A stretch of 62,105 bases of DNA from an uncultured Gammaproteobacteria bacterium (GTDB taxonomy: Bacteria; Patescibacteriota; Microgenomatia; 2-02-FULL-39-11): assembly GCA_964520615.1 (NCBI GenBank), contig CAZFNL010000120.1, forward strand, positions 1 through 62,105, in the 5' to 3' direction. The notes under the pieces were generated by a model. That model made no database searches, was not told the DNA's origin, and saw nothing but the letters and a program-made list of their open reading frames with translations. The translations under genes and the position numbers were made by a program. This document shows positions 1-60,174 of the stretch, one piece after another (position 1 is the first letter of the stretch; every line of letters begins with the position of its first letter).

Positions 1-690
1 AACTACAATATACAAAAGGAAAACCATCTTGGCATAAGCGTCTTTCCCTATGCCATCCTTGAGTCAACAGCGCTACAACCATTTCTTGATAGCATGATTC
101 CAGAAAAGGTCATTGGTGAATCGGATGAAGACAAAAGAGAAATAGTAGTTTATCAATTTGATAATCTACCTAAAGTGGCCTCCCTCCCCGGACCCAAATT
201 TGTCTTTGTCCATATCATCTCCCCCCACGGTCCGTATGTTTTTGACAAAAACTGCGGCGTGACATCCTATACCCAAAACTGGTACCGGCCGGAAGAGCAG
301 AATTATACAGCTCAAATCAACTGTATTAATAAAAAACTGGAAACGGCAATCGATTCTATCCTGAAGACTTCGTCCAAACCGCCTGTCATACTCCTTCAAG
401 CTGATGAGGGCGCCAAGTTCATCGCCGGCATGCTCAAACCTGAGGAAAGCTGGCAAAACGCTACCACTACCCAACTGAAGATGAAATTTCCCATTCTCTC
501 TGCTTACTATCTGCCTGGAGAACCAAAAGACAAGCTATACCAAACTATAACTCCTGTAAACTCATTTAGGATAATATTCAACTTATATTTTGACGCCAAA
601 ATGCCGCTTTTACCTGACAAAAATTATATTTATCTGGATAACAAACATCTCTACGATTTCCGCGACGTCACTAAAGAAATACATGGCTGA
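1..690 (+). CDS. Sulfatase/alkaline-phosphatase-superfamily-like protein, C-terminal part (5' truncated by window)
   Basis: Frame open from position 1; FVFVHIISPHGPY and VILLQADEG resemble sulfatase/LTA-synthase-like motifs. Confidence 0.5.
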   Translation, partial: NYNIQKENHLGISVFPYAILESTALQPFLDSMIPEKVIGESDEDKREIVVYQFDNLPKVASLPGPKFVFVHIISPHGPYVFDKNCGVTSYTQNWYRPEEQNYTAQINCINKKLETAIDSILKTSSKPPVILLQADEGAKFIAGMLKPEESWQNATTTQLKMKFPILSAYYLPGEPKDKLYQTITPVNSFRIIFNLYFDAKMPLLPDKNYIYLDNKHLYDFRDVTKEIHG

Positions 691-723
691 CAGGTATATT
701 TTCCAAAGAAGTATTTAGAAGAT

Positions 724-1038
724 TTAATTATGGTACCTTGTTGCAAATCTTTGGATTTCGTCCAATACCGGCAGCATACCCATGCCACGTTTACTCAGGT
801 GATAAGTAACTGACAGCTTGTCATGAATCTCCGCTTTGCGACTTATGAAATCTGCCCTCTCAAGCCTTTTTAACCTGTTAGTCAGGGTTACCGGATTAAG
901 ATTATTTAGCGCCCTTTGCAGCTGGCAAAATCTCAGGTTCCCCTTTCTCAACTCCATGATTATTGACAATGTCCAGAAATCTCCTATAACTTTGAGTAAC
1001 TTATTGCATTGTTTCTGGTTTTTCTCCTCCATGACCAT
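724..1038 (-). CDS. HxlR-family winged-helix transcriptional regulator
   Basis: C...LKVIGDFWTLSII, RFCQLQRAL, LTNRLKRLE, YHLSKRG typical of HxlR/DUF24; divergent from FMN reductase. Confidence 0.9.
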   Translation of the reverse strand: MVMEEKNQKQCNKLLKVIGDFWTLSIIMELRKGNLRFCQLQRALNNLNPVTLTNRLKRLERADFISRKAEIHDKLSVTYHLSKRGMGMLPVLDEIQRFATRYHN

Positions 1039-1060
1039 AATTTTATCCTCTTTTCCTCTC

Positions 1061-1114
1061 TTGACTATTTATTATTTGTACTATAATATATATAGTACTA
1101 TATTTATTATAGTT
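1061..1114 (+). promoter_or_regulatory. Sigma70-like promoter (TTGACT-17-TAATAT) overlapped by two tandem ACTATA-N5-TATAGT palindromes; putative HxlR-family operator
   Basis: TTGACT 1061-1066, TAATAT 1084-1089; TACTATA-atata-TATAGTA 1079-1097; ACTATA-tttat-TATAGT 1097-1113. Confidence 0.6.
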
Positions 1115-1152
1115 ATTATACAATAATATTTACTAAAATTAAAGGAGGCAAT

Positions 1153-1764
1153 ATGGCAAATTCAGATAAATTAAAAATACTGGTAATCCTAGGCAGTACC
1201 CGCAAAAAAAGATTCGGCGATAAAGCCGCAAAGTTTATTTACTCAGAGGCGGTAAAAAGGGATGATATGGATGTAGAACTTGTCGACCTGCGCGACTATC
1301 CCCTACCCTTTTTTGATGAACCTATATCCCCTTCAAGAATCACTGACGGAAAATATGCCAATCCGACTGTCCAAAAGTGGGCGGATAAAGTCAGTGTAGC
1401 AGACGGGTTTGTCATAGTCACCTCCGAGTATAACCATGGTTATCCAGCGGTGCTGAAAAATGCACTTGACTATGTATATTATCCGTGGAATAAAAAGGCT
1501 GTAGGCTTTGTAGCATACGGTAGCGTAGGAGGAGCAAGATCTGTAGAGCAACTGCGTGAAGTGGCAGTCGAACTACAGATGGCACCAATTAGAACCGGAA
1601 TACACATTCCATTTCAGGTAATGATGGAAATATTTAACAAAAAAGAGGGTGACAAAACAGATTATTTTTCGGCTTTCCGTCAGCAAGCAGGAGATTTTCT
1701 TTCACAACTTGCCTGGTGGACAAAGGCTCTTAAAGCGGCACGACAGACAGATATCATAAAATAA
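1153..1764 (+). CDS. NADPH-dependent FMN reductase (flavodoxin-like)
   Basis: LGSTR, DLRDYPLPFFDE, VTSEYNHGYPAVLKNALD, GGARSVEQLR; AAGGAGG RBS. Confidence 0.92.
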   Translation: MANSDKLKILVILGSTRKKRFGDKAAKFIYSEAVKRDDMDVELVDLRDYPLPFFDEPISPSRITDGKYANPTVQKWADKVSVADGFVIVTSEYNHGYPAVLKNALDYVYYPWNKKAVGFVAYGSVGGARSVEQLREVAVELQMAPIRTGIHIPFQVMMEIFNKKEGDKTDYFSAFRQQAGDFLSQLAWWTKALKAARQTDIIK

Positions 1765-1965
1765 AAGCGAGATGTCCCATCTGTCCATTCCAAAATCGTA
1801 ACGGTTCCATAACTTCAACATATTCTTAAGCTAATACCCCTAAAAATTGTTATAATCAATCCGGGTGAAATTTAGATGGAAGACTTTGGCATACTCTACA
1901 ATTGATGATTTCATAAGAAACATCCAATAATTTTTTTAGCCTCCGATTACTGCTATAATTTGTTT

Positions 1966-3144
1966 ATGAAATTCATTTTCCTTACTCTCCCGGCATATGG
2001 ACATCTCAATCCTACGCTTGGAGTAGCAAAAGAACTGGTAAGACGAAAGCACAAAGTTATTGTCTACAATACTGAAGATTTCAGGGGAAAGATAGAAAAA
2101 ACTGGAGCAGAGTTTCGCCCTCCTCCTATAAAAATCAAAATACCAGATTTGCGCGTTATGCAAAATGCGGAAATTATAGCCAAACTGAACCTTCAAGTAA
2201 CAAGACAAATACTCCCATATCTTGAAAGGATGATAGAAATTGAGAAACCTGACTGTGTACTTCACGACGCAATGAATCTGTGGGGTAAACTATCAGGTAT
2301 ACGATCCAAAACACCGTCTGTTTCACTTGTAACCAGCATGGTCCTCCACCCGGCAGTTCTTCTAAAATACACCAAATTTCTCCTACCGGATTATTTCAGG
2401 CTGATAAAACATACGAAAGATACTTTCCAGATATTTAAGGATTACCGCAATTTATATAAAAAGGTCGGCAGGCGGGTACCTTTTATTACCGACATGTTTA
2501 TAAATAGTGAAAAGCTGAACCTTGTTTTTACATCAAAATATTTCCAGCCATGCTCAGATAGACTTAGTCGGCAATTTAAGTTTGTAGGACCCATCATCTA
2601 CGAAAGACCAGAAGACCCACTCCCTGTAAATACAGCCGGCAAACCTATTATCTATATAGCTCTTGGCACAATCTACAACGACAATACTCAATTGTATCGG
2701 ACATTCATAAAAATACTCTCTGATACTCCATACCGTATCTACCTTTCTTATGGCAACCATATAAAACCTCAGGATTTGGGAGAAATACCGGAAAACATCA
2801 CCATCGGCAGTTACCTGCCGCAACTATCGATTCTGAAAAAAGCTTCCCTTTTCATCAGCCACGGTGGAATGAACAGTGTCAACGAAAGTCTTTATTTTGG
2901 CGTACCTATGCTTTTTTTTCCATTTATTCAAGAACAGAAAGCCAATGCTTCAAGGGTCGAAGAACTCGGCGCCGGAATAAGTTGGAATAAAAAACCAGTT
3001 GAAAAGGAAAACTTCTTGGGAACCATAAATGAACTTATGGCAGATCAAAAATACAAACAAAACGCAAAAAAAATAAGCAAAACACTAAAGGATGCAGGAG
3101 GATATAATAGAGCAGCAGATTTGATAATAACTTATGCAAGCTAA
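1966..3144 (+). CDS. Macrolide-type (MGT, GT1) UDP-glycosyltransferase
   Basis: PAYGHLNPTL, IYIALGT, PQLSILKKASLFISHGGMNSVNESLYFGVP, EQKANA. Confidence 0.9.
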   Translation: MKFIFLTLPAYGHLNPTLGVAKELVRRKHKVIVYNTEDFRGKIEKTGAEFRPPPIKIKIPDLRVMQNAEIIAKLNLQVTRQILPYLERMIEIEKPDCVLHDAMNLWGKLSGIRSKTPSVSLVTSMVLHPAVLLKYTKFLLPDYFRLIKHTKDTFQIFKDYRNLYKKVGRRVPFITDMFINSEKLNLVFTSKYFQPCSDRLSRQFKFVGPIIYERPEDPLPVNTAGKPIIYIALGTIYNDNTQLYRTFIKILSDTPYRIYLSYGNHIKPQDLGEIPENITIGSYLPQLSILKKASLFISHGGMNSVNESLYFGVPMLFFPFIQEQKANASRVEELGAGISWNKKPVEKENFLGTINELMADQKYKQNAKKISKTLKDAGGYNRAADLIITYAS

Positions 3145-4352
3145 TAAATTGGTAATACTCCACTTTTGAGACTGAAAGGATTTAGAGTCCAAACAAGCTT
3201 GCATTGCAGTATAAACCCCACGTCATCCTCAACTATAGCTTTGTGTTTCCTTAGTAAAGTCTTATATTCCTGCCACCATAAAGATCTGGGTTTAACCTCA
3301 GAAAGTTTAACCAACACTGCTTTAGCAAAATCCTGGTTGACTTTATGCAGGAGAAAATGCCTGATGGACTTTTTTCCATCCGTCACCAAAAGACCATAGC
3401 CTTTTTGCCGGCAATACTTTTGCATCAATTTCCATTTGAAAACATTTTCCGAAAGCGCCATCTTAAAAACCGGACGCACATCAACCACGATCCGTTTTCC
3501 GCTGGAAAGCTCAAATAGGCAATCAGGATATATATATCTATCCTTGTCTTGTAACCGATATGACAGTTTCAAAGGTTGCTCTTTATACCAAACTACATCA
3601 TCATGTTTCTCCATATAAATAAACATCTCTTTTTCACGCCCTGATTCAAATTGTACTTCTCTTTTAAGCTTGTGGCTGTAAAAAGAGCCTGAATTTTTCT
3701 GGTAATCGAAAGGTACATTTCTTATCCTTCTTTTACTTTCCAGGCTGACTTCCTTAATGTCTGGTAAAGATAAGTCATTCATTTCCTCCAACTGTCCAAA
3801 CCACTCAACTTCAGACAATAATTTCCTAAAAACCAAAGACTGCTTATTATTTAGGTAGGAAGGTAAAGTCTTTACGGATTTATTCATCAGTCTCCTGACT
3901 TTTTTTATAAGTATTTTATGTCGGGAGAACGAAGGATACGCCAGAAGAAGAATCAGATTTTCTATACCATATCTTGCCGGCAAATAGGAAAAATATCTTT
4001 TTATGTATCTTGATATACGTCCGGCCAGCTTTTTATCCGTTTTACCTGTATCCCTAAATCTGTTTTTAAGATATGAAGAAATTCTCTGTGATGCGTTGTC
4101 TGCATCTACGTTTTTCATATCCGCTGTCATTTTTGATCTTATGAGGACTATGGCAGATCTGGAATCTTTTTTTATTTTTTGTAAAGGGAAACCTGTTTGC
4201 CTGGATATTTGAAAAAAAGTTAACGGTTTTTCACCACCAAAACCATACCTTTTCTCTAAAGCTTTCCTGTCTCGTAAAGACATACATGCTTCTTTTGCCA
4301 AATCTGCAAATAACTCCCCGAATTTCTTATCCCTAAGTGTATTACCTAACAT
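3141..4352 (-). CDS. Sigma70-region-4-like HTH fused to TnsA N-terminal-like PD-(D/E)XK endonuclease
   Basis: N-term RDRKALEKRYGFGGEKPLTFFQISRQTG; C-term FESGREK, YKEQPLKLSY, YIYPDCL, VVDVRP. Confidence 0.65.
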   Translation of the reverse strand: MLGNTLRDKKFGELFADLAKEACMSLRDRKALEKRYGFGGEKPLTFFQISRQTGFPLQKIKKDSRSAIVLIRSKMTADMKNVDADNASQRISSYLKNRFRDTGKTDKKLAGRISRYIKRYFSYLPARYGIENLILLLAYPSFSRHKILIKKVRRLMNKSVKTLPSYLNNKQSLVFRKLLSEVEWFGQLEEMNDLSLPDIKEVSLESKRRIRNVPFDYQKNSGSFYSHKLKREVQFESGREKEMFIYMEKHDDVVWYKEQPLKLSYRLQDKDRYIYPDCLFELSSGKRIVVDVRPVFKMALSENVFKWKLMQKYCRQKGYGLLVTDGKKSIRHFLLHKVNQDFAKAVLVKLSEVKPRSLWWQEYKTLLRKHKAIVEDDVGFILQCKLVWTLNPFSLKSGVLPIY

Positions 4353-4407
4353 AACAATCTAATTGTTCCATAGCTTTTTGTCCTGGTCAATCTTTTAAAT
4401 AGTTATA

Positions 4408-4436
4408 TTGACATCTAAAATTATTCACCATATGCT
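4408..4436 (+). promoter_or_regulatory. Sigma70-like promoter for prk
   Basis: TTGACA-17-TATGCT. Confidence 0.55.
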
Positions 4437-4462
4437 TAATTTATATATTTGTTTCCGACTTT

Positions 4463-5566
4463 ATGAGCCAATCATTAAATTATCAGAGTAAACATTTCCA
4501 ATTCGGCTCTTTTGAATCGCACCCTACTTGTCTATTTCTACGTTCTATGTTGGACAGTATTAAAGAACCGTTTATTATAGGCATTGCTGGGGACAGCGGA
4601 AGCGGCAAGACTGTTTTTAGCGATGGAATCAGGAGGCTACTAGGTGAAAGCGTAGTCAAAACGATTGAAATGGACGGTTATCACAAGGAAAATAGGGCCG
4701 AACGCTTAAAAACTGGCCATTTGCCCTTAGATCCATCTATAAACAAACTTGATCTATTACATCAGCACCTGACAGACTTGAAAAAGGGAAAAGCAGTAGA
4801 GATTCCTGTGTATAATCATGCCACAGGTGATTTTGATAATCCAAGACCGTTTGCTCCTGCTCCAATTATTATAATTGAAGGGCTTCATGCTCTTTATCCT
4901 GAATTTCTACCTCTTCTGGATCTGAGTATCTATGTTGATCCGTCTAGGGAAGTAAAATGGAAATGGAAATACAGACGGGATATGGAAAAAAGAGGCCATG
5001 CTGCAGAAAAACTGATAGAAGAAATGCTCAAACGTGAAGCAGCTTATAAAAGATGGGTAGATTTCCAAAAGACAAGCGCCAATATCGTCATTAAAGTAAA
5101 TCTTACCCAAATGGCAAACTATGCCCGATATGAAATGGTCTATGCCATGCCGGAGATGTCCTACAAAGTAGAATTAATTATCCAACCCTCACAAAAACCA
5201 TTACCCAGCCTTATGCTTCCTCTTAATATGGGAGCAATACTTGATAACAACCAACCTCCTTTTCTTCTAGCAGCTGTTCCCAGTCTATATTGGGGAAGAA
5301 AAGTTATGGATGTTATCATTGATGGCTTACTTCCTGAACAGACAATAGCCAGTCTGGAAAATTTTATTGTCAGCTGCACAGGAATCCCGATAAGTGAGGC
5401 AATGAAGAGTGAAGCAAAGGATCTGAAATACGACAGCAGCAATGTCTCAGCTACCAGATTTGCCCAGCTTCTGATTGCCTGGCGGTTTTTGGAACAGGTC
5501 AACTGGAAATATAATGAACTTAGGGAGGGATATACCCAACGTAGTTCAGTTTGCAACGCAAAATGA
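4463..5566 (+). CDS. prk: Phosphoribulokinase (PRK/uridine kinase family, archaeal-PRK-like); alternative start at 4547
   Basis: IIGIAGDSGSGKT P-loop, DGYH, YNHATGDFD, IIEGLH, RRDMEKRG; adjacent to RuBisCO. Confidence 0.8.
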   Translation: MSQSLNYQSKHFQFGSFESHPTCLFLRSMLDSIKEPFIIGIAGDSGSGKTVFSDGIRRLLGESVVKTIEMDGYHKENRAERLKTGHLPLDPSINKLDLLHQHLTDLKKGKAVEIPVYNHATGDFDNPRPFAPAPIIIIEGLHALYPEFLPLLDLSIYVDPSREVKWKWKYRRDMEKRGHAAEKLIEEMLKREAAYKRWVDFQKTSANIVIKVNLTQMANYARYEMVYAMPEMSYKVELIIQPSQKPLPSLMLPLNMGAILDNNQPPFLLAAVPSLYWGRKVMDVIIDGLLPEQTIASLENFIVSCTGIPISEAMKSEAKDLKYDSSNVSATRFAQLLIAWRFLEQVNWKYNELREGYTQRSSVCNAK

Positions 5567-5622
5567 ACTTACGGAGGGTTATACCGATACATTTAATTGC
5601 GAATTCAAGTAAAAGAGGTATA
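5531..5622. mobile_element. Short palindromic insert bounded by TATACC...GGTATA, overlapping the prk 3' end
   Basis: TATACC 5531-5536, GGTATA 5617-5622; imperfect hairpin 5531-5583. Confidence 0.4.
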
Positions 5623-5631
5623 GCCTACCCC

Positions 5632-5694
5632 TTCCTTATCTGCTGGAGGTTTCTGGACCAGGTCAACTGGAAATATAATAATTTAAGTCTATAA
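5632..5694 (+). pseudogene. Recoded duplicate of the prk C-terminus (FLICWRFLDQVNWKYNNLSL*)
   Basis: Aligns to 5468-5530; 21-bp identity 5495-5515 vs 5659-5679. Confidence 0.85.
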
Positions 5695-5695
5695 A

Positions 5696-7084
5696 TCAGT
5701 AAACTATTTTAGGCTCCGTTCCCCATAGCTTTACTGCCTCAGATAGCGCGCTGTCTGGATGGGCTGCAACAAATTCCTTAACCGATTGGCCGTCAGTGAT
5801 GGCTTTTCTTGCCTCAAGAGCTGCTTCGACTCCTCTTTCCGCGCCTTTGGGATGACCTAATACTCCGCCTCCCATCTGTATATAACAGTCTTTACCCATC
5901 TTGCCCATCACCATATCCATTACTCCCGGATGTAATCCTCCGGAAGCGACAGGCCAAACCGTCTTTTTACCAAACCAGTTCTGTCCCAACGTATGGAATT
6001 TTGTATTTGGCTCTGTCATATCTTTTGTCAGAATACGCATAATCTCCTCACTCTCTCCATAATCTTCCATCTTGGCCTTGGGAGAACCACTGTGAAGGCT
6101 ATCAACTCCCAAAAGTCTGTATATTTTGGCGAGCACAATCATGGAAATACTAAAACCTTGCAGGCTACCCACACCAGTTATTCCGCTACCGCTTTCCCTG
6201 GTCATAAATGCATGCATTGCCCGATGTGCATGAATAATAAGCTCGGGATTCTTAAGCCTCATGGTATGGACTGCCGCCATACCGGTCGTCACCACATCTA
6301 TCATCATGCACCTGCCGCCATTTTCCTTTATTAGGTTTGCCCGATAAATCATCGTATCAAGATTGGAATGCGTCAGATTACATAGATAAATTTTTTTCTT
6401 GCCGCCTTTTTCCTCAAGCTCCCTTTGTACAGCAAGAACAAGTTTTGCCCTATCGTCAAACTTGTTGAATGGCAGACTGGTTAGATTCTCATCATCTTTA
6501 ATGAAATCATAAGTCCCATCACCTGCAGTCCAAAGTCTTCTGGCTAAATCTGCCTGTTCCTGAGCCGTCCTTCCCACTTTGGGTTTTGGCACAGTTCCCA
6601 ATATCGGCATCCTTCTTTGATCTTCATCCTGGGCAAGCATATCCCTGACTCCTTCAATACCATATCTGGGTCCGGGAAATGCATCTACCATTTTCTTTGG
6701 AAATCTCATATCAAAAATTCGAAGCCCCTTCACCATCTTCATCCCGCCAATATTTCCGGCGGGCCCCGCCAAATAACCTGACATATTGTCATATTCAAAC
6801 AAGTCCACTTTATAGGCCACCTTAAACATATGGTTGATTTCATCTAGATCGTATACTATAGCTTTGTAATCATCCGCCACCTTTATACCTGAGTCTGGAC
6901 GATCCTCTACCTTTGTCCAGGTACCTGTGGATGATTCAGCTGCCACAGAGGCTGCAGCATCCCTGAAGTTTGAGGGGTCAATATTATCCGCAAGCTCCAT
7001 CTTGAATTGAACCAACACATAATTCTCATCCGGATTCTCAGGTTGCCAGCCTTCCCGCGCAATATAATTTAATTGGACAGCCAT
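5696..7084 (-). CDS. rbcL: RuBisCO large chain, Form III-related, catalytic residues present
   Basis: AAESSTGTW, GN, GTVPKPKVG, DFIKDDEN, HAHRAMHA, HSGSPKAKME, SGG, GGG; AGGAGG RBS. Confidence 0.93.
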   Translation of the reverse strand: MAVQLNYIAREGWQPENPDENYVLVQFKMELADNIDPSNFRDAAASVAAESSTGTWTKVEDRPDSGIKVADDYKAIVYDLDEINHMFKVAYKVDLFEYDNMSGYLAGPAGNIGGMKMVKGLRIFDMRFPKKMVDAFPGPRYGIEGVRDMLAQDEDQRRMPILGTVPKPKVGRTAQEQADLARRLWTAGDGTYDFIKDDENLTSLPFNKFDDRAKLVLAVQRELEEKGGKKKIYLCNLTHSNLDTMIYRANLIKENGGRCMMIDVVTTGMAAVHTMRLKNPELIIHAHRAMHAFMTRESGSGITGVGSLQGFSISMIVLAKIYRLLGVDSLHSGSPKAKMEDYGESEEIMRILTKDMTEPNTKFHTLGQNWFGKKTVWPVASGGLHPGVMDMVMGKMGKDCYIQMGGGVLGHPKGAERGVEAALEARKAITDGQSVKEFVAAHPDSALSEAVKLWGTEPKIVY

Positions 7085-7209
7085 AAAATTTACCTCCTAT
7101 TAAAAAAATAACTGATACTTATCCAGTATATCTTTTTGGAAAGTAAAAATGCAACTAAGGAAAAGAGTACATAAGTATCGTTAAACAATGGATGATGTGA
7201 AATCAACCG

Positions 7210-8388
7210 TTATTCTGTACAATTTGTACCCAAACCGCCTACGCAGTTTTCTGTGGGAGGTTTACCTCTCTCAGGGCATTTGAGGGAATAAATGCACGCG
7301 TCATTTGTGACTGAATCTATTTGTTTAGTGATATTGACTTGGCTATCATTTCCGTAAGTGATAAGAATCCTGTCTAAATCGTCTGGTACGTATTTATCAA
7401 ACTGATTATTTTCTTTTCCATTCACGTACATTTTCAAAGTTTTGCCGCTTATATTACAATATTTTTTACCATTATCCATGGCAAAACAATCATTACTTAA
7501 CTGCATTTTCAAAGATTTGAAAAACTCTCCAAGAGTCACATCCTTTTTGTGAAAATGGATTATGTTCCCATTGCCGTCATGAAGGTGCACATACGGATCA
7601 AGTTCCTTGCCTTCAACCGATTGGTATTTTGCTAAAGAAAAATCTACAGGTATATCATTCAGATAGACCTTAAAATCAACATGAATGTGGTAAGCTTCCG
7701 CTGCCGGCGGCTGGGTAATAGGGATATCTTTTATTGCAGTTTTAACCAAATTACTGAATTCATCAAAACCAGAAGGATTATTCAGTTTGACTCCGTTAAG
7801 GTAAAAAGTCGGAGTAGCATCCACCCCCAAAGAATTGGCATCATCCACGTCTTCTTGTATAAGATCCTGTACTTTCTTTGAGTCTATATCGGCTTTGAAT
7901 TTATTAGCATCTATGTGAAGCGTCTGAGCATATTTGTCAAAAGTGTCTCTAGGATTACCTAAATCAGACCATTCAGATTGGTTCTCATAAAGGAGATTAT
8001 ACATATCAAAAAACTTCCCCTGCAGACCTGCCGCCACTGCAGCCTGTGCCGCTATCTGGGCATTTTGGTGAATTGAAGTAAGAGGGAAATTACGGAAGAC
8101 AAAATTTAGTTTTCCCTTGAATTGGTCTAGTACTTGCTGGACAATCGAATGATACGCTCCGCAAGCCGGACACTGGAAATCCCCAAATTCCACCAGCGTC
8201 GCCTGGGCTGATGGAGAAGATATCTTCTCACTGTCGGCTCTGACCAAAAGATCAGAATTCACCTTGGGACCGGAAAGGTTATTATTGTTTGAAGATTTGT
8301 TTCCTGAAGAAGATAACATCACCGCGGCCACAATAACCAAAACCGTGACAATAATTGTGCCTATAATAAATTTTTTTTCGCCTGACAT
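7210..8388 (-). CDS. Membrane-anchored DsbA-family thioredoxin with extra His/Cys-rich C-terminal domain
   Basis: N-term TM; EFGDFQCPACG, FRNFPL, GVDATPTFYLNG; C-term HIHVDF/HLHD/HFH and 4 terminal Cys. Confidence 0.85.
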   Translation of the reverse strand: MSGEKKFIIGTIIVTVLVIVAAVMLSSSGNKSSNNNNLSGPKVNSDLLVRADSEKISSPSAQATLVEFGDFQCPACGAYHSIVQQVLDQFKGKLNFVFRNFPLTSIHQNAQIAAQAAVAAGLQGKFFDMYNLLYENQSEWSDLGNPRDTFDKYAQTLHIDANKFKADIDSKKVQDLIQEDVDDANSLGVDATPTFYLNGVKLNNPSGFDEFSNLVKTAIKDIPITQPPAAEAYHIHVDFKVYLNDIPVDFSLAKYQSVEGKELDPYVHLHDGNGNIIHFHKKDVTLGEFFKSLKMQLSNDCFAMDNGKKYCNISGKTLKMYVNGKENNQFDKYVPDDLDRILITYGNDSQVNITKQIDSVTNDACIYSLKCPERGKPPTENCVGGLGTNCTE

Positions 8389-8471
8389 GTTTTATCCGTA
8401 TATTTTATTTATTATTCCTCTATAATACAAGACCTTATTAATATATCATGATATACTAAAATGCGCTAAAA

Positions 8472-8891
8472 ATGGACCAAAATAAAATATTAGGAGAGGT
8501 AAAAACCATAGCTATAATCGGTCTATCAGAAGACAGTGAAAAATATAGCCACAAGGTTGGAGCTTATCTTCAATCTCAGGGATATAAAATAATTCCAGTT
8601 AATCCAAACATTTCCGAAACTCTAGGTGAAAAAGCCTTTCCAAATCTTTTGTCTATACCCAAGAGCGTAAAAGTGGATATTGCTGATATTTTCCGAAAAA
8701 ATGAATTTGTTTTTTTCCACGTAAAAGAAGCGGTCAGACGTGGAGATATAAAAACTGTATGGATGCAGGAAGGAATCGCAGATAATAAAGCTCAAAAGTA
8801 TGCACAAGCTCACGGTTTGACAGTCATAATGAACTCTTGTCTGATGAAATTTATAAAGAATGGAAAAAGTCTAGATAAAAAATTATACTAG
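8472..8891 (+). CDS. CoA-binding domain protein (YccU-like)
   Basis: IAIIGLS, GYKIIPVNP, DIFRK, VWMQEGI, NSC. Confidence 0.88.
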   Translation: MDQNKILGEVKTIAIIGLSEDSEKYSHKVGAYLQSQGYKIIPVNPNISETLGEKAFPNLLSIPKSVKVDIADIFRKNEFVFFHVKEAVRRGDIKTVWMQEGIADNKAQKYAQAHGLTVIMNSCLMKFIKNGKSLDKKLY

Positions 8892-8904
8892 AGAAAGACA
8901 GACC

Positions 8905-9558
8905 ATGATAAAGAAAAACCTGCTCACAAAATTCTATTATTATATTTTCGGAACTACATCTGCTCTCGGACTTCTTCTCCTGTATTACAGGATACTTCTT
9001 ATAAACTCCGATCTTCACAGTCTATACGTACATAATTCGCTAACATACTTTGTCTCATATATTGTACTGACATTTGGCACAGCTATACTTTTCGGCATAA
9101 GTGTCTCCCTTTTCCTTTATCATTACAGGAAATACGGTATTGCCGATCTCTTTCATACATCAGGAGGCGGTGTCGGAGCTCTCATTGGCATCTTTGCCTC
9201 GTCTTGTCCGGTCTGCGGTTCTACCATCCTTTCAGGTCTTGGAGTAATCGGAGGATTATCCTCATTGCCGTTTCAGGGGCTTGAGATAAAAACACTTTCG
9301 TTTGGACTCATACTTTTTTCTGTAATTCTGGCGATTAGAAATCTGAAAAACAGAAATTGCCATAAAGATATCTGCCCGAAGATATTGAATGATTCGCTAA
9401 AAAAGGAGGAAAGAAAATGGGTAGGTTTAGCGCTAGCAACATTGATGATTTTTATTTTTGCCGGGTGGCAGATGCTCAGACAAGACCCATTTTTCGCTTC
9501 CCAAGGAAAAGCGCCAAACTCAAGCGACTACAGCTGTAATAACAGCAAGAAAATCTGA
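8905..9558 (+). CDS. Hypothetical membrane protein with CPVC motif
   Basis: Several TM segments; ASSCPVCG. Confidence 0.6.
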   Translation: MIKKNLLTKFYYYIFGTTSALGLLLLYYRILLINSDLHSLYVHNSLTYFVSYIVLTFGTAILFGISVSLFLYHYRKYGIADLFHTSGGGVGALIGIFASSCPVCGSTILSGLGVIGGLSSLPFQGLEIKTLSFGLILFSVILAIRNLKNRNCHKDICPKILNDSLKKEERKWVGLALATLMIFIFAGWQMLRQDPFFASQGKAPNSSDYSCNNSKKI

Positions 9559-9568
9559 CAAAATATTC

Positions 9569-10774
9569 TTATCTGTATTTTAAGTACTCTACACTTCTAT
9601 ACCTTGTAAATCCCAAAAGTAATAAGCTTGAAACTGCTGCAATTGCACTGGCAAAGAAAAAGGGCATTGAGGGATTAAATTTATCCCAAAGGAATCCAGC
9701 GATAAGACTGGCAGGTAAAGTCGCTGCTCCAATAACCGCGTTATATATTCCATATGCTTTACCACGATGCTCGGGTGAAGTCATGTCAGCTACAAAGGCT
9801 TTTGCTACACCCTCTGTAGTAGCATAGTAAACTCCGTAAAAGGCAAAAAGAAACCATATCTGATAACTTTTATCTGCTAGTGCAAAACCTAAATAAGCAA
9901 GGGCATAAGCCAACCATCCCAAAAAAATTACCTTTTCCCTGCCGATTTTATCAGACAGACTACCCAAAGGTATTGATGCGGTGGCATAGAAAAAATTGAA
10001 AAGAGCATAAACCAATGGAATTCCTAAAAGCGTCACGCCAACATTCTGAGCACGCAGTATAAGAAAAGTATCTGAAGAATTTCCCAAAGAAAATAAGACC
10101 ACGATAAAAAGAAAAATATAAAAGTCTTGAGAAAGATTGTGAGGCCTATCGTCATGTTTAATTTCTGCAGACAGATGTTTTTCCTTAACAAAAAAAACAA
10201 GTATAAGAAGGGTTATAAAAAGGGGAACTGCTGAAAAGAAAAATATATAATGATATTTCAATTGATTGCTACTCAAAAGATAAAGCATGACAAAAAGTAA
10301 TATCGGCCCTATTACAGAACCGAATGTATCAAGAGCCCTCACTATTCCAAAACCCTTGCCTCTTGTTTCAACTTTTGCAGACTCGGCGATAAGAGCGTCT
10401 TTTGGAGTATCTTTCATCCCTTTCCCAACTCCATCAATAAAACGCAGTCCCAATACACCAATACCGGATGTCAATATAGAAAGAAGTGGCCTACTAATCA
10501 ATGAAAGGAAATACCCTGTAAAGACAAGAGATTTCTTTACTCTGAATTTATCCGTCAGGTAACCAGCGACTATTTTGAATATACTGGCACTACTTGTAAC
10601 TAAACCTTCAATAAGTCCTATAAATTCTTTATTAAAATGGAGAATATTTGCAAGGTAAAGAGGAAGAATCGGTAGGAAAATATCCTGGCTTATACCGCCG
10701 AAAAAGCTTAACATTCCTATAAAAAAGACGTTATTATCTATTCTTTTAGAAGTCTTCCTATATTCCTGTGCCAT
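9569..10774 (-). CDS. MFS transporter
   Basis: About 12 hydrophobic segments; GYLTDKF, RFIDGVGKG, GSLSDKIGR. Confidence 0.92.
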   Translation of the reverse strand: MAQEYRKTSKRIDNNVFFIGMLSFFGGISQDIFLPILPLYLANILHFNKEFIGLIEGLVTSSASIFKIVAGYLTDKFRVKKSLVFTGYFLSLISRPLLSILTSGIGVLGLRFIDGVGKGMKDTPKDALIAESAKVETRGKGFGIVRALDTFGSVIGPILLFVMLYLLSSNQLKYHYIFFFSAVPLFITLLILVFFVKEKHLSAEIKHDDRPHNLSQDFYIFLFIVVLFSLGNSSDTFLILRAQNVGVTLLGIPLVYALFNFFYATASIPLGSLSDKIGREKVIFLGWLAYALAYLGFALADKSYQIWFLFAFYGVYYATTEGVAKAFVADMTSPEHRGKAYGIYNAVIGAATLPASLIAGFLWDKFNPSMPFFFASAIAAVSSLLLLGFTRYRSVEYLKYR

Positions 10775-10892
10775 ATTGTTTCCAAACCTTAAAAACTTAT
10801 TACTTTTGAAATCATATCATTGTCAAAGTAAAAAATGTATACCATTAAAATTCCCTATTGAAAAGGAAAAAATGATATATAATAATTGAGCT

Positions 10893-11330
10893 ATGGCCAA
10901 ACAAACAAAGCCGGATAAAAGCGGTAGAATTTCGGCCGTATATTTCGTAAGCTATATACTCATTGGAATTATCATATCTTTTATATATAGTGTAATAGTA
11001 GTCTACCTCCTTAATCCGTCAGTATATAGATTAATTCCACTCCTTGGAAGAGCTGACCAAGTAATTTTCCCCCTAGTCATTGTCCTTCTTGATACCTTTA
11101 TTGCGTCAAAAATGATAAAAAGCAAATACGAAATAGAAAAACCTGACAGGGTAGCATTATTATCAACTATATATGTTCTTGTCTTCAGCCTTATTTTTAT
11201 GCTGCCGATGTTAACGCAGAAAATTAGCGGTATCCCCAATACCAGGAACCTATTGCCTACTCTTATATCCTCAGCCTTGGAAATTCTGCTTTTTTATTTC
11301 TTCAGCTCCTTATTCTTAAGAAAGAAATAG
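10893..11330 (+). CDS. Hypothetical membrane protein
   Basis: 145-aa ORF with about 4 TM segments. Confidence 0.6.
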   Translation: MAKQTKPDKSGRISAVYFVSYILIGIIISFIYSVIVVYLLNPSVYRLIPLLGRADQVIFPLVIVLLDTFIASKMIKSKYEIEKPDRVALLSTIYVLVFSLIFMLPMLTQKISGIPNTRNLLPTLISSALEILLFYFFSSLFLRKK

Positions 11331-17618: not shown

Positions 17619-17669
17619 TTACTCATGTCTCAAAGCTTCAATCGGGGATAAATCAGCGGCTTTCCCGGC
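17619..17669 (-). pseudogene. Recoded duplicate of the ABC permease C-terminus (AGKAADLSPIEALRHE*)
   Basis: Aligns to 17695-17745 (ARKAADLSPIEALRYE*), offset 76. Confidence 0.88.
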
Positions 17670-17694: not shown

Positions 17695-18918
17695 TTATTC
17701 ATATCGTAACGCTTCTATCGGAGATAAATCTGCCGCCTTACGTGCTGGATAAAGTCCGAATACTATTCCTATACCCGCCGATACACCTATTGCCAAAATT
17801 ATAGCCGATAGGGATAGGGTAAACGGCAGGCTTATAAAATGAGAAATTACAAATGACAACCCCGCACCCAAAAACATCCCTATTACGCCTCCGACAAAGG
17901 TTAGAATAATAGACTCAGCAAGAAATTGGGAAATAACCGTCCTCTTCTTGGCTCCTAGGGCTTTTCTCAAACCTATTTCCCTTGTCCTTTCTGTTACTGT
18001 CACAAGCATGATATTCATAATTCCGATTCCCCCGACAAGAAGAGATATGGCGGCAATTCCGGAAAGAAGCGCGCTGAAAGTACCTGTCACCTGGGATGCA
18101 GCTCCCAATATGTCAGCCTGGGAAAATATGCTGAAATCTGCCTGTGCGGGATCTTTTATCTTATGTCTGGTCAGAAGAAAATAGCCTACTTGGTTTTCCG
18201 CCTGTGTCATAACGTCCGTACTCTTGGCGGAAACGGAAATATTACTCACATAATCCACTCCGTATAACTGATGTTGTGCGGTGGTAAGAGGAACATAAAC
18301 AATATCATCCTGATTGGCAAATCCCGATCCGCCCTTGGAGACTGTTACGCCAACCACTCTGAAAGCCTGCTTGTTTATTCTTATGGACTGTCCGACCGGA
18401 TCTGCTCCGTCACCGAAAAGATCACTTACTACCTGCGGACCCAAAACGGCTACTTTCTCCTCACTGTCTACATTATTCTGGCTTATAAATGCGCCTGAAG
18501 ACATTGTAATGTTGCGTACGGCAGCATATGCCGGAGTAACCCCGGCTATCTGTGTATTCGTATTGTTTCTGCCCGCTGTTACCTGTCCTCTCCTTGTCAG
18601 TTCAGCCGACACGTTACTTACCGTTGTCACATCAGGTGATGATAAAATAGCTTTTGCGTCATCATAAGTAAGTGAAGTGTCCCCTCCGGCTGCCCCCCTG
18701 ACCCCGCCGGTTGTTGAAGCACCCGGTATAACAGTCAGAAGATTGGATCCCAAAGATTCAATCTGCGACTGCACCGCTTTTTGTCCGGCCTGGCCCAAGG
18801 AAATGAGCGCAATAACGGCCCCGATACCAATTACAATACCGAGAGTTGCCAGGGCTGTACGCATTTTATTCAAAGTCAGAGCATTTATACTTTCGGCGAG
18901 AAGTTCTCCAAAATCCAT
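17695..18918 (-). CDS. MacB/FtsX-like ABC permease
   Basis: GIVIGIGAV, GGIGIMNIMLVTVTERTREIGLRKALGA, PIEALRYE. Confidence 0.93.
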   Translation of the reverse strand: MDFGELLAESINALTLNKMRTALATLGIVIGIGAVIALISLGQAGQKAVQSQIESLGSNLLTVIPGASTTGGVRGAAGGDTSLTYDDAKAILSSPDVTTVSNVSAELTRRGQVTAGRNNTNTQIAGVTPAYAAVRNITMSSGAFISQNNVDSEEKVAVLGPQVVSDLFGDGADPVGQSIRINKQAFRVVGVTVSKGGSGFANQDDIVYVPLTTAQHQLYGVDYVSNISVSAKSTDVMTQAENQVGYFLLTRHKIKDPAQADFSIFSQADILGAASQVTGTFSALLSGIAAISLLVGGIGIMNIMLVTVTERTREIGLRKALGAKKRTVISQFLAESIILTFVGGVIGMFLGAGLSFVISHFISLPFTLSLSAIILAIGVSAGIGIVFGLYPARKAADLSPIEALRYE

Positions 18919-58322: not shown

Positions 58323-58358
58323 TTACTCCAGTATAATTTCATCCACGGCCGCACCAGC
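58323..58358 (-). pseudogene. Recoded duplicate of the ilvB C-terminus (AGAAVDEIILE*)
   Basis: Aligns to 58399-58434, offset 76; 17-bp identity block. Confidence 0.9.
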
Positions 58359-58398
58359 ACCACTTTTATAACATATCCTACTAAAACTATGATTATTG

Positions 58399-60105
58399 CT
58401 ATTCTAATATTATCTCGTCCACGGCCGCACCAGCCGGCATCATTGGGAATACATTGGCCTCTGTCTCCACAACAAATTCAATAACAAACGGTCCTTTATG
58501 CGCACGTGCTTTTTTTATTGCAGGTAATATATCCTTTCTGTTTTCTACTTTCACAGCCGGTATCCGGAACCCCTCGCAGAGTTTGATAAAATCGGGATTC
58601 CTCAAAAATACCTCCGAATATTTATGATTGAAAAAAAGATGCTGCCATTGCCGTACCATACCCAAAAAATTATTATTCAGAATTGCTACTTTAATATCTA
58701 TATTTTCCTCTTCAATGGTTGCTAGCTGATTCATGGTCATCTGGAAACTTCCATCCCCAACAATTGCCCAGACTTCGGCCCCAGATCTGCCCAATTTTGC
58801 GCCCATAGCAGCCGGAATGGAAAAACCCATAGTACCTAAACCTCCGGAAGTAAGAAATCTGTCAAGTTTATGAAAATGGTAATATCTGGCGGCTATCATC
58901 TGATGTTGACCCACATCGGCTACAACAACTGCCTCACCCCTCGTCTCCTGATTCAGCTCATTAACCACCTCACCCATTTTGATTTTTCCTTTTTTGGGAT
59001 GGACTTCAACTTGAATAACCTTTTTATCTTCAATCCGGTCATATTTTTTAAATTCCGCAAACCATTCTTTATGCTTTACACGATTGACTAGAGGAATAAG
59101 TTTACCAAGAACATTTTTCACGTCGCCGACAATAGGCACATCTGCTTTTACATTTTTCCCCAGCTCGGCAGGATCAATATCCACATGAACTACTTTCGCG
59201 CCTTTGGCATAAGAAGATAAATTTCCAGTCACTCTGTCATCAAAACGCATACCCAAAGCAATCAGGCAATCAGTTTTATTAGTACACATATTCGGACTAA
59301 GATTCCCGTGCATCCCCAACATTCCTACATAACTTGGATGGTCAACAGTGATACTACTGATTCCATGAAGGGTGGTAGCTACAGGAATATCAGCCTTTCG
59401 TGCAAGCTCATCCAGCTCTTTTTCAGCATGGGAAATGAGGATTCCGTGACCAGCCAAAATATAAGGCTTTTTGCTTTCATTTATAATTTCTGCCGCTTTT
59501 TTAATTTGTATAATATTTCCCTCAACAGTCGGCTTGTATCCGGGAAGATCTAGACTTTTGGGGTAAACAAATTTGCACTCTCTATATTGCGCATCTTTGG
59601 CAATATCAATCATGACTGGACCGGGTCTCCCTGAATTGGCAATATAAAAAGCTTCTCTTATTACATCCGCCACTTCCTCCGGTTTTAGGATAAGATAATT
59701 ATGTTTGGTAATCATTCCCGTCACTCCTACCACATCAGTCTCCTGAAAAGCATCGTTGCCAATGAGATTTGAAACCACCTGGCCGCTAATGCAAACAATC
59801 GGGACTGAATCCATCATGGCATCGGCAATTCCGGTTATCAGATTTGTGGCACCAGGTCCTGAGGTAACGAGGCAAACTCCCGGTTTACCGGTAACTCTAG
59901 CATAGCCTTCAGCAGCGTGAGCCGCACCCTGTTCGTGACGTACCATCACATGATGAAGCTCCGGATATTCCAAAAGCGCATCATAGGTTGGCATGATAGC
60001 ACCCCCTATATAACCAAAAATTGTATCGACTCCCTCACGAAGCAACATTTCACAAAGAATTTCTCCACCGGTTGCGTTCTGTCCTTCTTTTAATCTAGTT
60101 TTCAT
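58399..60105 (-). CDS. ilvB: Acetolactate synthase large subunit
   Basis: RHEQGA, TSGPGATN, FQETD, GDGSFQM..NN, PM. Confidence 0.96.
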   Translation of the reverse strand: MKTRLKEGQNATGGEILCEMLLREGVDTIFGYIGGAIMPTYDALLEYPELHHVMVRHEQGAAHAAEGYARVTGKPGVCLVTSGPGATNLITGIADAMMDSVPIVCISGQVVSNLIGNDAFQETDVVGVTGMITKHNYLILKPEEVADVIREAFYIANSGRPGPVMIDIAKDAQYRECKFVYPKSLDLPGYKPTVEGNIIQIKKAAEIINESKKPYILAGHGILISHAEKELDELARKADIPVATTLHGISSITVDHPSYVGMLGMHGNLSPNMCTNKTDCLIALGMRFDDRVTGNLSSYAKGAKVVHVDIDPAELGKNVKADVPIVGDVKNVLGKLIPLVNRVKHKEWFAEFKKYDRIEDKKVIQVEVHPKKGKIKMGEVVNELNQETRGEAVVVADVGQHQMIAARYYHFHKLDRFLTSGGLGTMGFSIPAAMGAKLGRSGAEVWAIVGDGSFQMTMNQLATIEEENIDIKVAILNNNFLGMVRQWQHLFFNHKYSEVFLRNPDFIKLCEGFRIPAVKVENRKDILPAIKKARAHKGPFVIEFVVETEANVFPMMPAGAAVDEIILE

Positions 60106-60109
60106 ATTA

Positions 60110-60137
60110 AAAGCGTTTAGCGGTAAGCGTGAAACGT
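60110..60137. repeat. Degenerate heptamer array, inverted relative to 58297-58317
   Basis: AAAGCGT TTAGCGG TAAGCGT GAAACGT. Confidence 0.65.
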
Positions 60138-60174
60138 GAAGTTTCTTTTTACGCTTTTGGCCTGGCGCCTTATG

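Follow-up and report, generated by a model that had tools for sequence, protein, structure and literature searches.

Two probable events of different age at the prk-rbcL junction of a Patescibacteria genome: a duplicated gene end and a mobile element in a stop codon

The DNA described here, called the window below, is a stretch of 62,105 nucleotides (nt) (contig CAZFNL010000120.1, assembly GCA_964520615.1) from an uncultured bacterium that GTDB places in the Patescibacteriota (Microgenomatia; 2-02-FULL-39-11). It carries convergent genes for phosphoribulokinase (PRK; prk) and the large subunit of RuBisCO (rbcL), and between them lie a second, non-coding copy of the prk end, referred to here as the shadow, and a short miniature inverted-repeat transposable element (MITE). 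Two unrelated events of different age probably shaped this junction, namely an old duplication of the gene end and a recent insertion of the MITE. The contrast in age is visible in the identities: the MITE is 99% identical to its copies elsewhere in the genome, whereas the shadow is 84% identical to the functional copy. In what follows, G000 denotes the genome of the window and G001 that of its sister species, and the junction is composed of these parts:

4463-5566, + strand: prk open reading frame (ORF), phosphoribulokinase, 367 amino acids ending in LIAWRFLEQVNWKYNELREGYTQRSSVCNAK and a stop; residues 1-356 are native and 357-367 MITE-encoded
5467-5521, + strand: copy 1 of the duplicated gene end, coding for the conserved C-terminal helix ending in LLIAWRFLEQVNWKYNEL
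5516-5530, + strand: native tail codons ELREG, homologous to ELGKQ of the sister and also 16/17 equal to MITE positions 32-48
5531-5622, + strand: MITE of 92 nt, an 88-nt core between duplicated TA, with two hairpins on either strand
5531-5566, + strand: MITE-encoded PRK extension, YTQRSSVCNAK (5531-5563) plus TGA (5564-5566), in the 3' arm of the first hairpin
5562-5585, + strand: MITE-internal segment D2', resembling the prk tail plus the left MITE terminus (5513-5536) at 22/24 positions
5623-5629, + strand: G of the old TAG stop, then a short filler up to the shadow
5630-5694, + strand: the shadow, copy 2 of the prk end, ending in LICWRFLDQVNWKYNNLSL and a stop; now non-coding
5696-7084, - strand: rbcL, RuBisCO large subunit, 462 amino acids (PF00016, PF02788), convergent with prk; stop at 5696-5698
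5370-5880, no strand: tract of old divergence around the junction, with a synonymous difference to the sister of 0.70-0.98

The prk product is predicted to be a genuine PRK on the basis of its domain (PF00485, E 6e-40 in a profile search) and of close homologues annotated as PRK. It is 94% identical to the 356-residue PRK of the sister (P0001), its closest homologue, and 55-66% identical to PRKs from Gottesmanbacteria and cyanobacteria. A PRK of the cyanobacterial/archaeal type has already been described in Gottesmanbacteria (PMC6389311). A 403-residue protein with a TnsA-like endonuclease N-terminal domain is encoded just upstream of prk (3141-4352, - strand) and occupies the same place in the sister.

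The recent event can be followed to the base. The MITE has imperfect 27-nt ends, starting TATACC / GGTATA, and recurs five more times in the genome at 97-99% identity, with sharp ends and unrelated flanks, making six copies on four contigs of a short element without coding capacity. Two orthologous sites are empty in G001, where the gap measures exactly 90 nt and a single TA is present, which establishes duplication of the TA target. What the initial annotation had called a palindromic insert does form hairpins (fold z-scores of -4.6 and -4.7 on the two strands), but it is actually a dispersed repeat, sharply bounded at 5531 and 5622; a comparison with Rfam gave no family match. Outside this genome, a decayed relative of the MITE is present once in the sister, and another genus of the family has copies at 80% identity. 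The same genome also carries a mobile element with matching ends:

G000:C85:3211-4340: intact IS630-family insertion sequence (IS), 1130 nt, with an ORF of 353 amino acids matching DDE_3 (PF13358, E 1.6e-33)

The ends of the MITE are TATACCCAACGTAGTTCAGTTTGCAAC and, as the reverse complement, TATACCTCTTTTACTTGAATTCGCAAT; those of the IS are TATACCCCTCTTCCTCCAGTTTGCAGC and, again as the reverse complement, TATACCCACCTAACTCAGGTTTGCAAC. Both elements have TATACCC-N8-TCAGTTTGCAAC in common, meaning that the MITE shares inverted terminal repeats with an element encoding a DDE transposase, and this IS is likely the driver of the MITE. The near-identical copies and the empty sites are consistent with mobilisation in trans by the partner transposase. 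A second DDE_3 gene is located at G000:C104:2047-2466.

Both junctions of the insert at prk, whose reality the initial annotation had left to read support, are backed by three metagenome runs, whose independent assembly at k=31 (Logan contigs) yielded contigs spanning 5250-5559 and 5593/5615-5850. Depth within the MITE is about 6-12x that of the flanks in these contigs, and no empty-site contig was seen among them. The three runs may include the source sample of the genome assembly.

The target of the insertion was the TA of the prk stop codon TAG, which thereby became TAT. In-silico removal of the 90 nt yields ...AAT GAA CTT AGG GAG GGA TAG, that is, a PRK of 356 residues ending in WKYNELREG, while the PRK of the sister, also 356 residues long, ends in WKYNELGKQ. 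Because removal of the MITE restores the length found in the sister, only the last 11 residues are junk-derived. Thus, the earlier proposal of a junk-derived PRK tail holds for YTQRSSVCNAK, which occurs in 0/16 homologues compared, and fails for ELREG: the tails ELREG and ELGKQ agree at 11/18 bases with mismatches that are mainly transitions, and ELREG is therefore native. The C-terminal tails of the homologues differ widely in length past the conserved helix, and the rest of prk is under strong purifying selection (pN, the proportion of nonsynonymous differences, 0.01 vs pS, its synonymous counterpart, 0.17-0.24). For both reasons, the extension is probably tolerated and the longer PRK probably still works, as far as sequence comparison can indicate.

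The older event left the shadow. Positions 5471-5515 and 5635-5679 agree at 38/45 bases, far beyond chance, and their 7 differences amount to 4 synonymous codons and 2 residue changes; the coordinates, the two peptides and the 21-bp identical block reported initially are all correct. A search of the find_repeats type and local alignment agree on the duplication. The former returned the direct repeat D1 (5479-5515 / 5643-5679, 34/37), and with the latter the match reaches about 56 nt (5467-5521 vs 5630-5685; score 66, against 14.5 +/- 2.5 for shuffles). The shadow is also detected by tblastn with PRK (E 5.8e-4), and the helix FAQLLIAWRFLEQV, to which the duplicated part belongs, is kept in every homologue compared. 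As first described, the shadow reads on to NLSL and a stop: its ORF fragment (5551-5694) closes with a TAA (5692-5694) that lies 1 nt from the stop of rbcL. Before the MITE arrived, the shadow lay 74 nt downstream of copy 1. Its divergence from copy 1 is about 15% (84-85% identity), and its differences are distributed 3:1:3 over codon positions 1:2:3, i.e., without coding bias.

A role of the shadow as terminator or structured RNA was considered and rejected. Its fold z-scores (0.3 and 1.8) are nothing special, a search between prk and rbcL found no terminator-like site, Rfam matches in the region were at chance level (E 7-9), and the sampled words were absent from metatranscriptomes of the same study. 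A diversity-generating retroelement with a pair of template and variable repeats was considered and rejected, as the 7 mismatches from the functional copy to the shadow (G>T, T>C, G>T, C>G, C>A, T>C, A>C) are not confined to the adenines of one copy. An integrative element at the gene's 3' end, of the icd/e14 type, was likewise dismissed: the pre-MITE gap between the old stop and the shadow is only about 10 nt, with no recombinase element between the copies.

Comparison with the sister species shows a different arrangement of the junction, in which one further gene is present:

L001:7075-7731: HAD-family hydrolase gene of the sister, 218 amino acids (PF13419), between prk and rbcL, 3 nt past the prk stop

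This gene could be a phosphoglycolate-phosphatase-type partner of RuBisCO, and no orthologue was found in the genome of the window. In two other genera of the family, the stops of prk and rbcL abut or overlap with nothing between them. Homology between window and sister ends at 5520 and restarts exactly at the rbcL stop, and local alignments of the spacer between the HAD gene and rbcL of the sister with the prk end and with the shadow are at chance level. The comparison of homologous C-termini and of the sister junction, both proposed by the initial annotation, showed that the sister PRK has an NEL-type tail, that the MITE tail is missing from the homologues compared, and that the sister has the HAD gene and no shadow. 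The idea that the shadow, ending in WKYNNLSL, is the ancestral gene end finds no support in the only close relative. For a near-tandem duplication, it may not even be meaningful to call one of the copies ancestral.

The age of the shadow can be estimated from the three versions of the 45 nt, namely the functional one, that of the sister and the shadow itself, which differ from one another in a star-like manner (7, 8 and 9 differences). The shadow is therefore approximately as old as the split between the two species and far older than the MITE. The surrounding sequence is old as well: the synonymous difference to the sister is 0.70-0.80 over prk codons 304-356 and 0.74-0.98 over rbcL codons 410-462, against 0.06-0.34 over most of both genes. 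Import of this divergent tract into one species was considered and rejected, because other genes, among them that of a permease elsewhere in the window (17695-18918), are just as divergent at synonymous sites from one end to the other. For the same reason, an interpretation as old sequence that escaped homogenisation is preferred for the tract, tied to the difference between HAD gene and shadow, with flanks that were more recently homogenised between the species.

More broadly, identity to the sister (L001) is mosaic over positions 1-11000, with about 78% at 1-1734, 89% at 1890-5520 and 92% at 5696-10969; other regions are at 74-82%, whereas at the junction of prk and rbcL the identity falls sharply, to 66-74%. 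Such a pattern suggests frequent exchange between the two species.

The initial annotation took the shadow to be a single oddity, but it is one member of a genome-wide class. This was revealed by an ORF-end scan, in which the last 45 nt of 1396 ORF ends were compared with the 300 nt downstream (match of at least 28/45; reverse-complement and shuffled controls). Matches were found at 23 ends, against 0-1 in the controls, with offsets of 68-80 nt in 20 of the 23 and mostly of 73-76; the chance of 20/23 falling within a 13-nt span among about 250 possible offsets is near 1e-22. A scan of all positions for offsets of 45-400 gave 39 direct-repeat loci, 18 of them at 66-77 nt (16 at 70-77), with the rest scattered. 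Tandem Repeats Finder, applied to the whole genome, reported no repeat of period >54 nt; it is blind to the class because two partial copies fall below its threshold. Example loci in G000 are C85:7708-7824, C63:18576-18700, C11:46889-47037, C17:11282-11433, C107:21386-21540 and C18:21400-21530. The homology has its right edge at the stop codon or 10-20 nt beyond it and its left edge anywhere from -24 to -75, and the duplicated length varies from 24 to 75 nt, only the sum of length and filler being constant. Of the 74 nt at prk, about 56-60 are homologous. Whole-unit tandem homology exists at some loci (C107, C17-11362, C11+42126 and an array in the sister) and is absent at others.

Two further cases lie in the window, and gene starts as well as a transfer RNA (tRNA) gene are also affected:

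17619-17669, - strand: shadow of the end of a FtsX/MacB-type permease gene
17695-17745, - strand: the corresponding end of the permease gene itself (gene 17695-18918)
58323-58398, - strand: copy, 76 nt downstream, of a gene end coding for AGAAVDEIILE and a stop (ORF 58399-60174)
G000:C88:25910-26051, G000:C18:20025-20150 and G000:C85:19157-19284: duplicated gene starts and tRNA gene

The permease end, AADLSPIEALR(Y/H)E and a stop, is coded twice, 76 nt apart, and 10 of the 13 differences between the copies fall at third codon positions. The extra 76 nt of this shadow are missing in the sister, and the shadow is spanned by single k=31 contigs in three runs with zero differences. At the AGAAVDEIILE end, the differences are mostly synonymous. 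A step of about 70-73 nt was found at the starts of an adenylate-kinase-like gene right after secY and of a DnaB-like gene, the latter copied at both ends; the 5' half of a tRNA gene is copied at the same step. Over 20 pairs, differences are distributed 60:43:140 over codon positions 1:2:3, unevenly among loci, and at one locus 19/22 fall at third positions. Shadows biased in this way either were coding until recently, as seems clear for some of them, or derive from another allele.

The class is conserved, lost and amplified between the two species. In the sister, whose genome comes from another study, three loci are held in common at 93% identity, at least five are missing and three carry extra units. 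Extra units at orthologous loci number 0, 1, 2 or about 3; copy number thus differs between the species for the class, though not at prk itself. The 3' end of the DnaB-like gene of the sister is a tandem array with a period of 73, 4.2 copies and 99% identity (L148:479-782, G001:C4), whose unit comprises the last 15 codons, the stop and 24 bases, and arrays at some loci contain three to four copies of 73-76 nt. The single ComEA-like gene end of the sister (L151, G001:C18) looks like a hybrid with respect to G000:C107:21386-21540, like the working copy on the left and identical to the shadow on the right. Repeat collapse may here have returned a stored copy to use, as unequal exchange predicts. 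The peak at 75-76 nt is also seen in 395 kb of the sister, whereas the scan returned a single locus (69 nt) from another genus and nothing from another family, with 200 kb covered in each, and no such offset cluster in 528 kb of unrelated DNA.

Taken together, the following course of events is proposed for the junction. In an old event, the last 60-70 nt or so of prk, including the stop, would have been duplicated about 74 nt downstream, leaving the protein unchanged because the first copy keeps its own stop. The second copy would then have drifted as a silent relic to about 85% identity. Events of the same kind, always with a step of 68-80 nt, would have struck further sites in this genome and in the sister species: 20 or more gene ends besides that of prk, several gene starts and one tRNA. 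Such duplications would last only if they lie across the edge of a gene and one copy stays intact. Once two copies exist, unequal exchange could expand or collapse the units; that duplications of the same step recur, and that they have expanded and collapsed, is directly observed, while the process generating them is inferred. In the recent event, a 90-nt non-autonomous derivative of the resident IS630-family IS, the MITE, jumped into the TA of the prk stop TAG, after which translation would run 11 codons into the MITE, up to the TGA in the first hairpin; here the insertion, the TA duplication and the restored frame of 356 residues are directly observed.

Several observations weigh against this two-event account. 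The prk unit is not a clean tandem, and the 7-11 nt past the old stop match neither the rbcL end nor the sequence upstream in prk. Several young loci combine copies of 96-100% identity with an intervening stretch of 14-48 nt that is novel; no source for such fillers was found elsewhere in the genome or, on either strand, in the local sequence. A simple duplication that then decays neutrally is therefore insufficient. Some shadows, that of prk excluded, differ almost solely at third codon positions, and later mixing with diverged alleles can explain this recoded look, though not the ruler. In favour of the initial annotation, the stop of the shadow abuts that of rbcL, as genuine prk ends do in two other genera, and at two other loci of the class the shadow or unit carries sister-type sequence. 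Finally, the collections hold no third genome of the genus that could show the first state: a scan of metagenome and genome contigs for the QVNWKYN coding pattern gave 87 loci, among which PRK appeared in the sister only.

A further difficulty arises from a second direct repeat (D2; 5513-5536 vs 5562-5585, 22/24), which the initial annotation overlooked. The native tail plus the first MITE bases (AATGAACTTAGGGAGGGATATACC) resembles an internal segment of the MITE (AATGAACTTACGGAGGGTTATACC); even the flank part taken by itself matches MITE positions 32-48 at 16/17 bases (score 30, against 14.6 +/- 2.5 for shuffles, with 0/3000 shuffles reaching it). The match leaves a small chance that ELREG is MITE-related after all. 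The 80%-identical copies of the other genus also carry the internal segment, which is thus old, and no such match exists between the prk tail of the sister and the MITE. Capture of the prk tail by the MITE was rejected on these two grounds, conservation in the copies of another genus implying that the segment was not captured from prk here. A preference for self-like targets, a short conversion or chance are possible causes of the likeness.

Among the alternatives to duplication followed by MITE insertion, replacement of an allele is unlikely, though less so than the others. A diverged prk allele, or its 3' part, would have entered by a homologous crossover upstream and a downstream joint out of register, so that the last 60 nt or so of the resident gene, its genuine old end next to rbcL, were left as the shadow. 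Such a scar would account for a shadow stop 1 nt from the rbcL stop, as for genuine prk stops in two other genera, for a junction within a tract far older in divergence than its flanks, exactly where the sister has its HAD gene, and for the coding signature that shadows retain at other loci; at one locus, the shadow and the downstream flank are 91% identical to the sister and the gene body 74%. However, it gives no reason for a constant overshoot of about 75 nt at more than 20 loci, nor does a joint at the shadow predict an old tract that also spans the last 60 or so codons of rbcL beyond it. The differences of the prk shadow (3:1:3) are without coding bias, and identical copies with a filler unrelated to the downstream flank, as found at young loci, are unexpected for two close alleles. 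The original proposal, with the shadow as ancestral C-terminus and everything after WKYN (ELREGYTQRSSVCNAK) taken from the palindromic insert, is largely refuted and now very improbable. It draws on the 16/17 match of the prk tail AATGAACTTAGGGAGGG to MITE positions 32-48 and on the shadow abutting rbcL, but six copies and two empty sites fix the ends of the MITE at 5531 and 5622. This leaves ELREG outside the element and homologous to ELGKQ of the sister, where the MITE is absent; in addition, the pre-insertion length equals the 356 residues of the sister, and the duplication, at about 15% divergence, predates the insert, at 1%, by far.

Still less credence is given to stray insertion of a spacer of the clustered regularly interspaced short palindromic repeat (CRISPR) system, by which Cas1-Cas2 would have pasted a spacer into non-CRISPR DNA, duplicating a target of repeat length, with repeat plus spacer making up the step of about 75 nt. 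The constant step and the order of copy, novel filler and copy at several loci (copies 36-45 nt, fillers 27-40 nt) resemble such a product. Nevertheless, Cas1 (PF01867) was found neither in G000 nor in G001, both 93-94% complete, in a search that does match control genomes, and no CRISPR array turned up in repeat scans. Moreover, the duplicated length is not fixed (24-75 nt), and at prk a copy of about 60 nt goes with a filler of about 10 nt. More generally, no CRISPR adaptation genes and no integrated element that would explain the more than 20 gene-edge duplications were found. An assembly artefact, with variants of the prk end from two strains joined one behind the other, is very improbable, even for a metagenome-derived genome with an estimated contamination of 4%: k=31 contigs of three runs join prk to the left end of the MITE and the right end of the MITE to shadow and rbcL, the permease shadow is spanned without difference, and orthologous shadows are 93% identical in the sister genome of another study.

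Duplicated gene ends are familiar from integrative elements, as e14 and phage 21 integrate in the icd gene of E. coli and duplicate the gene end. As in that case, the working gene here ends in one copy, with a displaced, sometimes synonymously recoded end downstream; unlike it, the copies are separated by no more than 4-48 nt of filler, with neither an element nor an integrase or cargo, and the distance is constant across unrelated genes. Nivala and colleagues reportedly described, in 2018, neo-CRISPR loci that arise from off-target spacer integration. The constant period and the arrangement of copy, novel insert and copy are alike, but here Cas1 is absent and the duplicated length varies. MITEs at gene 3' ends are also known, for instance the Rickettsia palindromic elements and the Neisseria Correia elements. 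In Coxiella burnetii, QMITE1 and QMITE2 overlap gene 3' ends, and EnhC of strain Dugway gains 33 residues in this way (PMC5896051). The prk MITE resembles these cases in that the final residues and the stop of a housekeeping gene come from a short element that is non-coding, present in several copies, able to form hairpins and terminated by TA. It differs in that it sits in the stop codon itself, in a genome of the Patescibacteria (candidate phyla radiation, CPR), and in that an IS630-family (DDE_3) partner with matching ends resides in the same genome and the TA duplication is proven by the sister's empty sites.

The nearest published parallel to the class as a whole is offered by the Borg elements of Methanoperedens, in which one genome contains many locus-specific tandem repeats and relatives contain few (Schoelmerich et al. 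2023, PMC9879509). In the parts of that report drawn on here, about half of the repeats are intergenic or start in gene ends, arrays are flanked by partial repeats, copy number shifts fast, and the middle of the unit is found in neither flank, which leaves its origin puzzling, much as for the fillers described above; these traits have counterparts in the present class. The same parts depict the repeats as mostly perfect, A-rich and multi-copy, without describing a single preferred unit length. Compared with this account, the class described here has a tightly kept step of 68-80 nt, mostly two copies, many of them old and diverged, and is located on a bacterial chromosome. In the portions considered, the Borg tandem repeats are likewise without a mechanism.

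On its own, the prk locus is neat but ordinary, as both PRK in Gottesmanbacteria and C-terminal extensions made by MITEs have been published. It nevertheless provides a clean natural case of a transposon making a stop codon sense, in a key gene of carbon metabolism of an uncultured CPR bacterium and with a before-state that can be inferred to the base. The recurring gene-edge duplication of about 75 nt, conserved, lost or amplified between two species, deserves a study of its own. Tentatively, and at somewhat less than even confidence, a mutational process that measures off about 75 nt by some physical ruler is suggested for this Patescibacteria genus, and perhaps for others, which would copy 25-75 nt to a place 68-80 nt away, sometimes with new sequence between; the prk shadow would then be one footprint of an undescribed DNA transaction rather than an accident peculiar to its locus. 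If a specific process of this kind exists, it would mislead gene callers as well as evolutionary readings of "recoded" gene ends, and reduced genomes would have in it a hitherto unrecognised origin of minor structural changes and of variation at C-termini. Its harmless products at gene edges would serve as raw material, with arrays that grow and shrink and whose collapse, as the hybrid gene end of the sister suggests for one locus, can swap a C-terminus for the stored copy.

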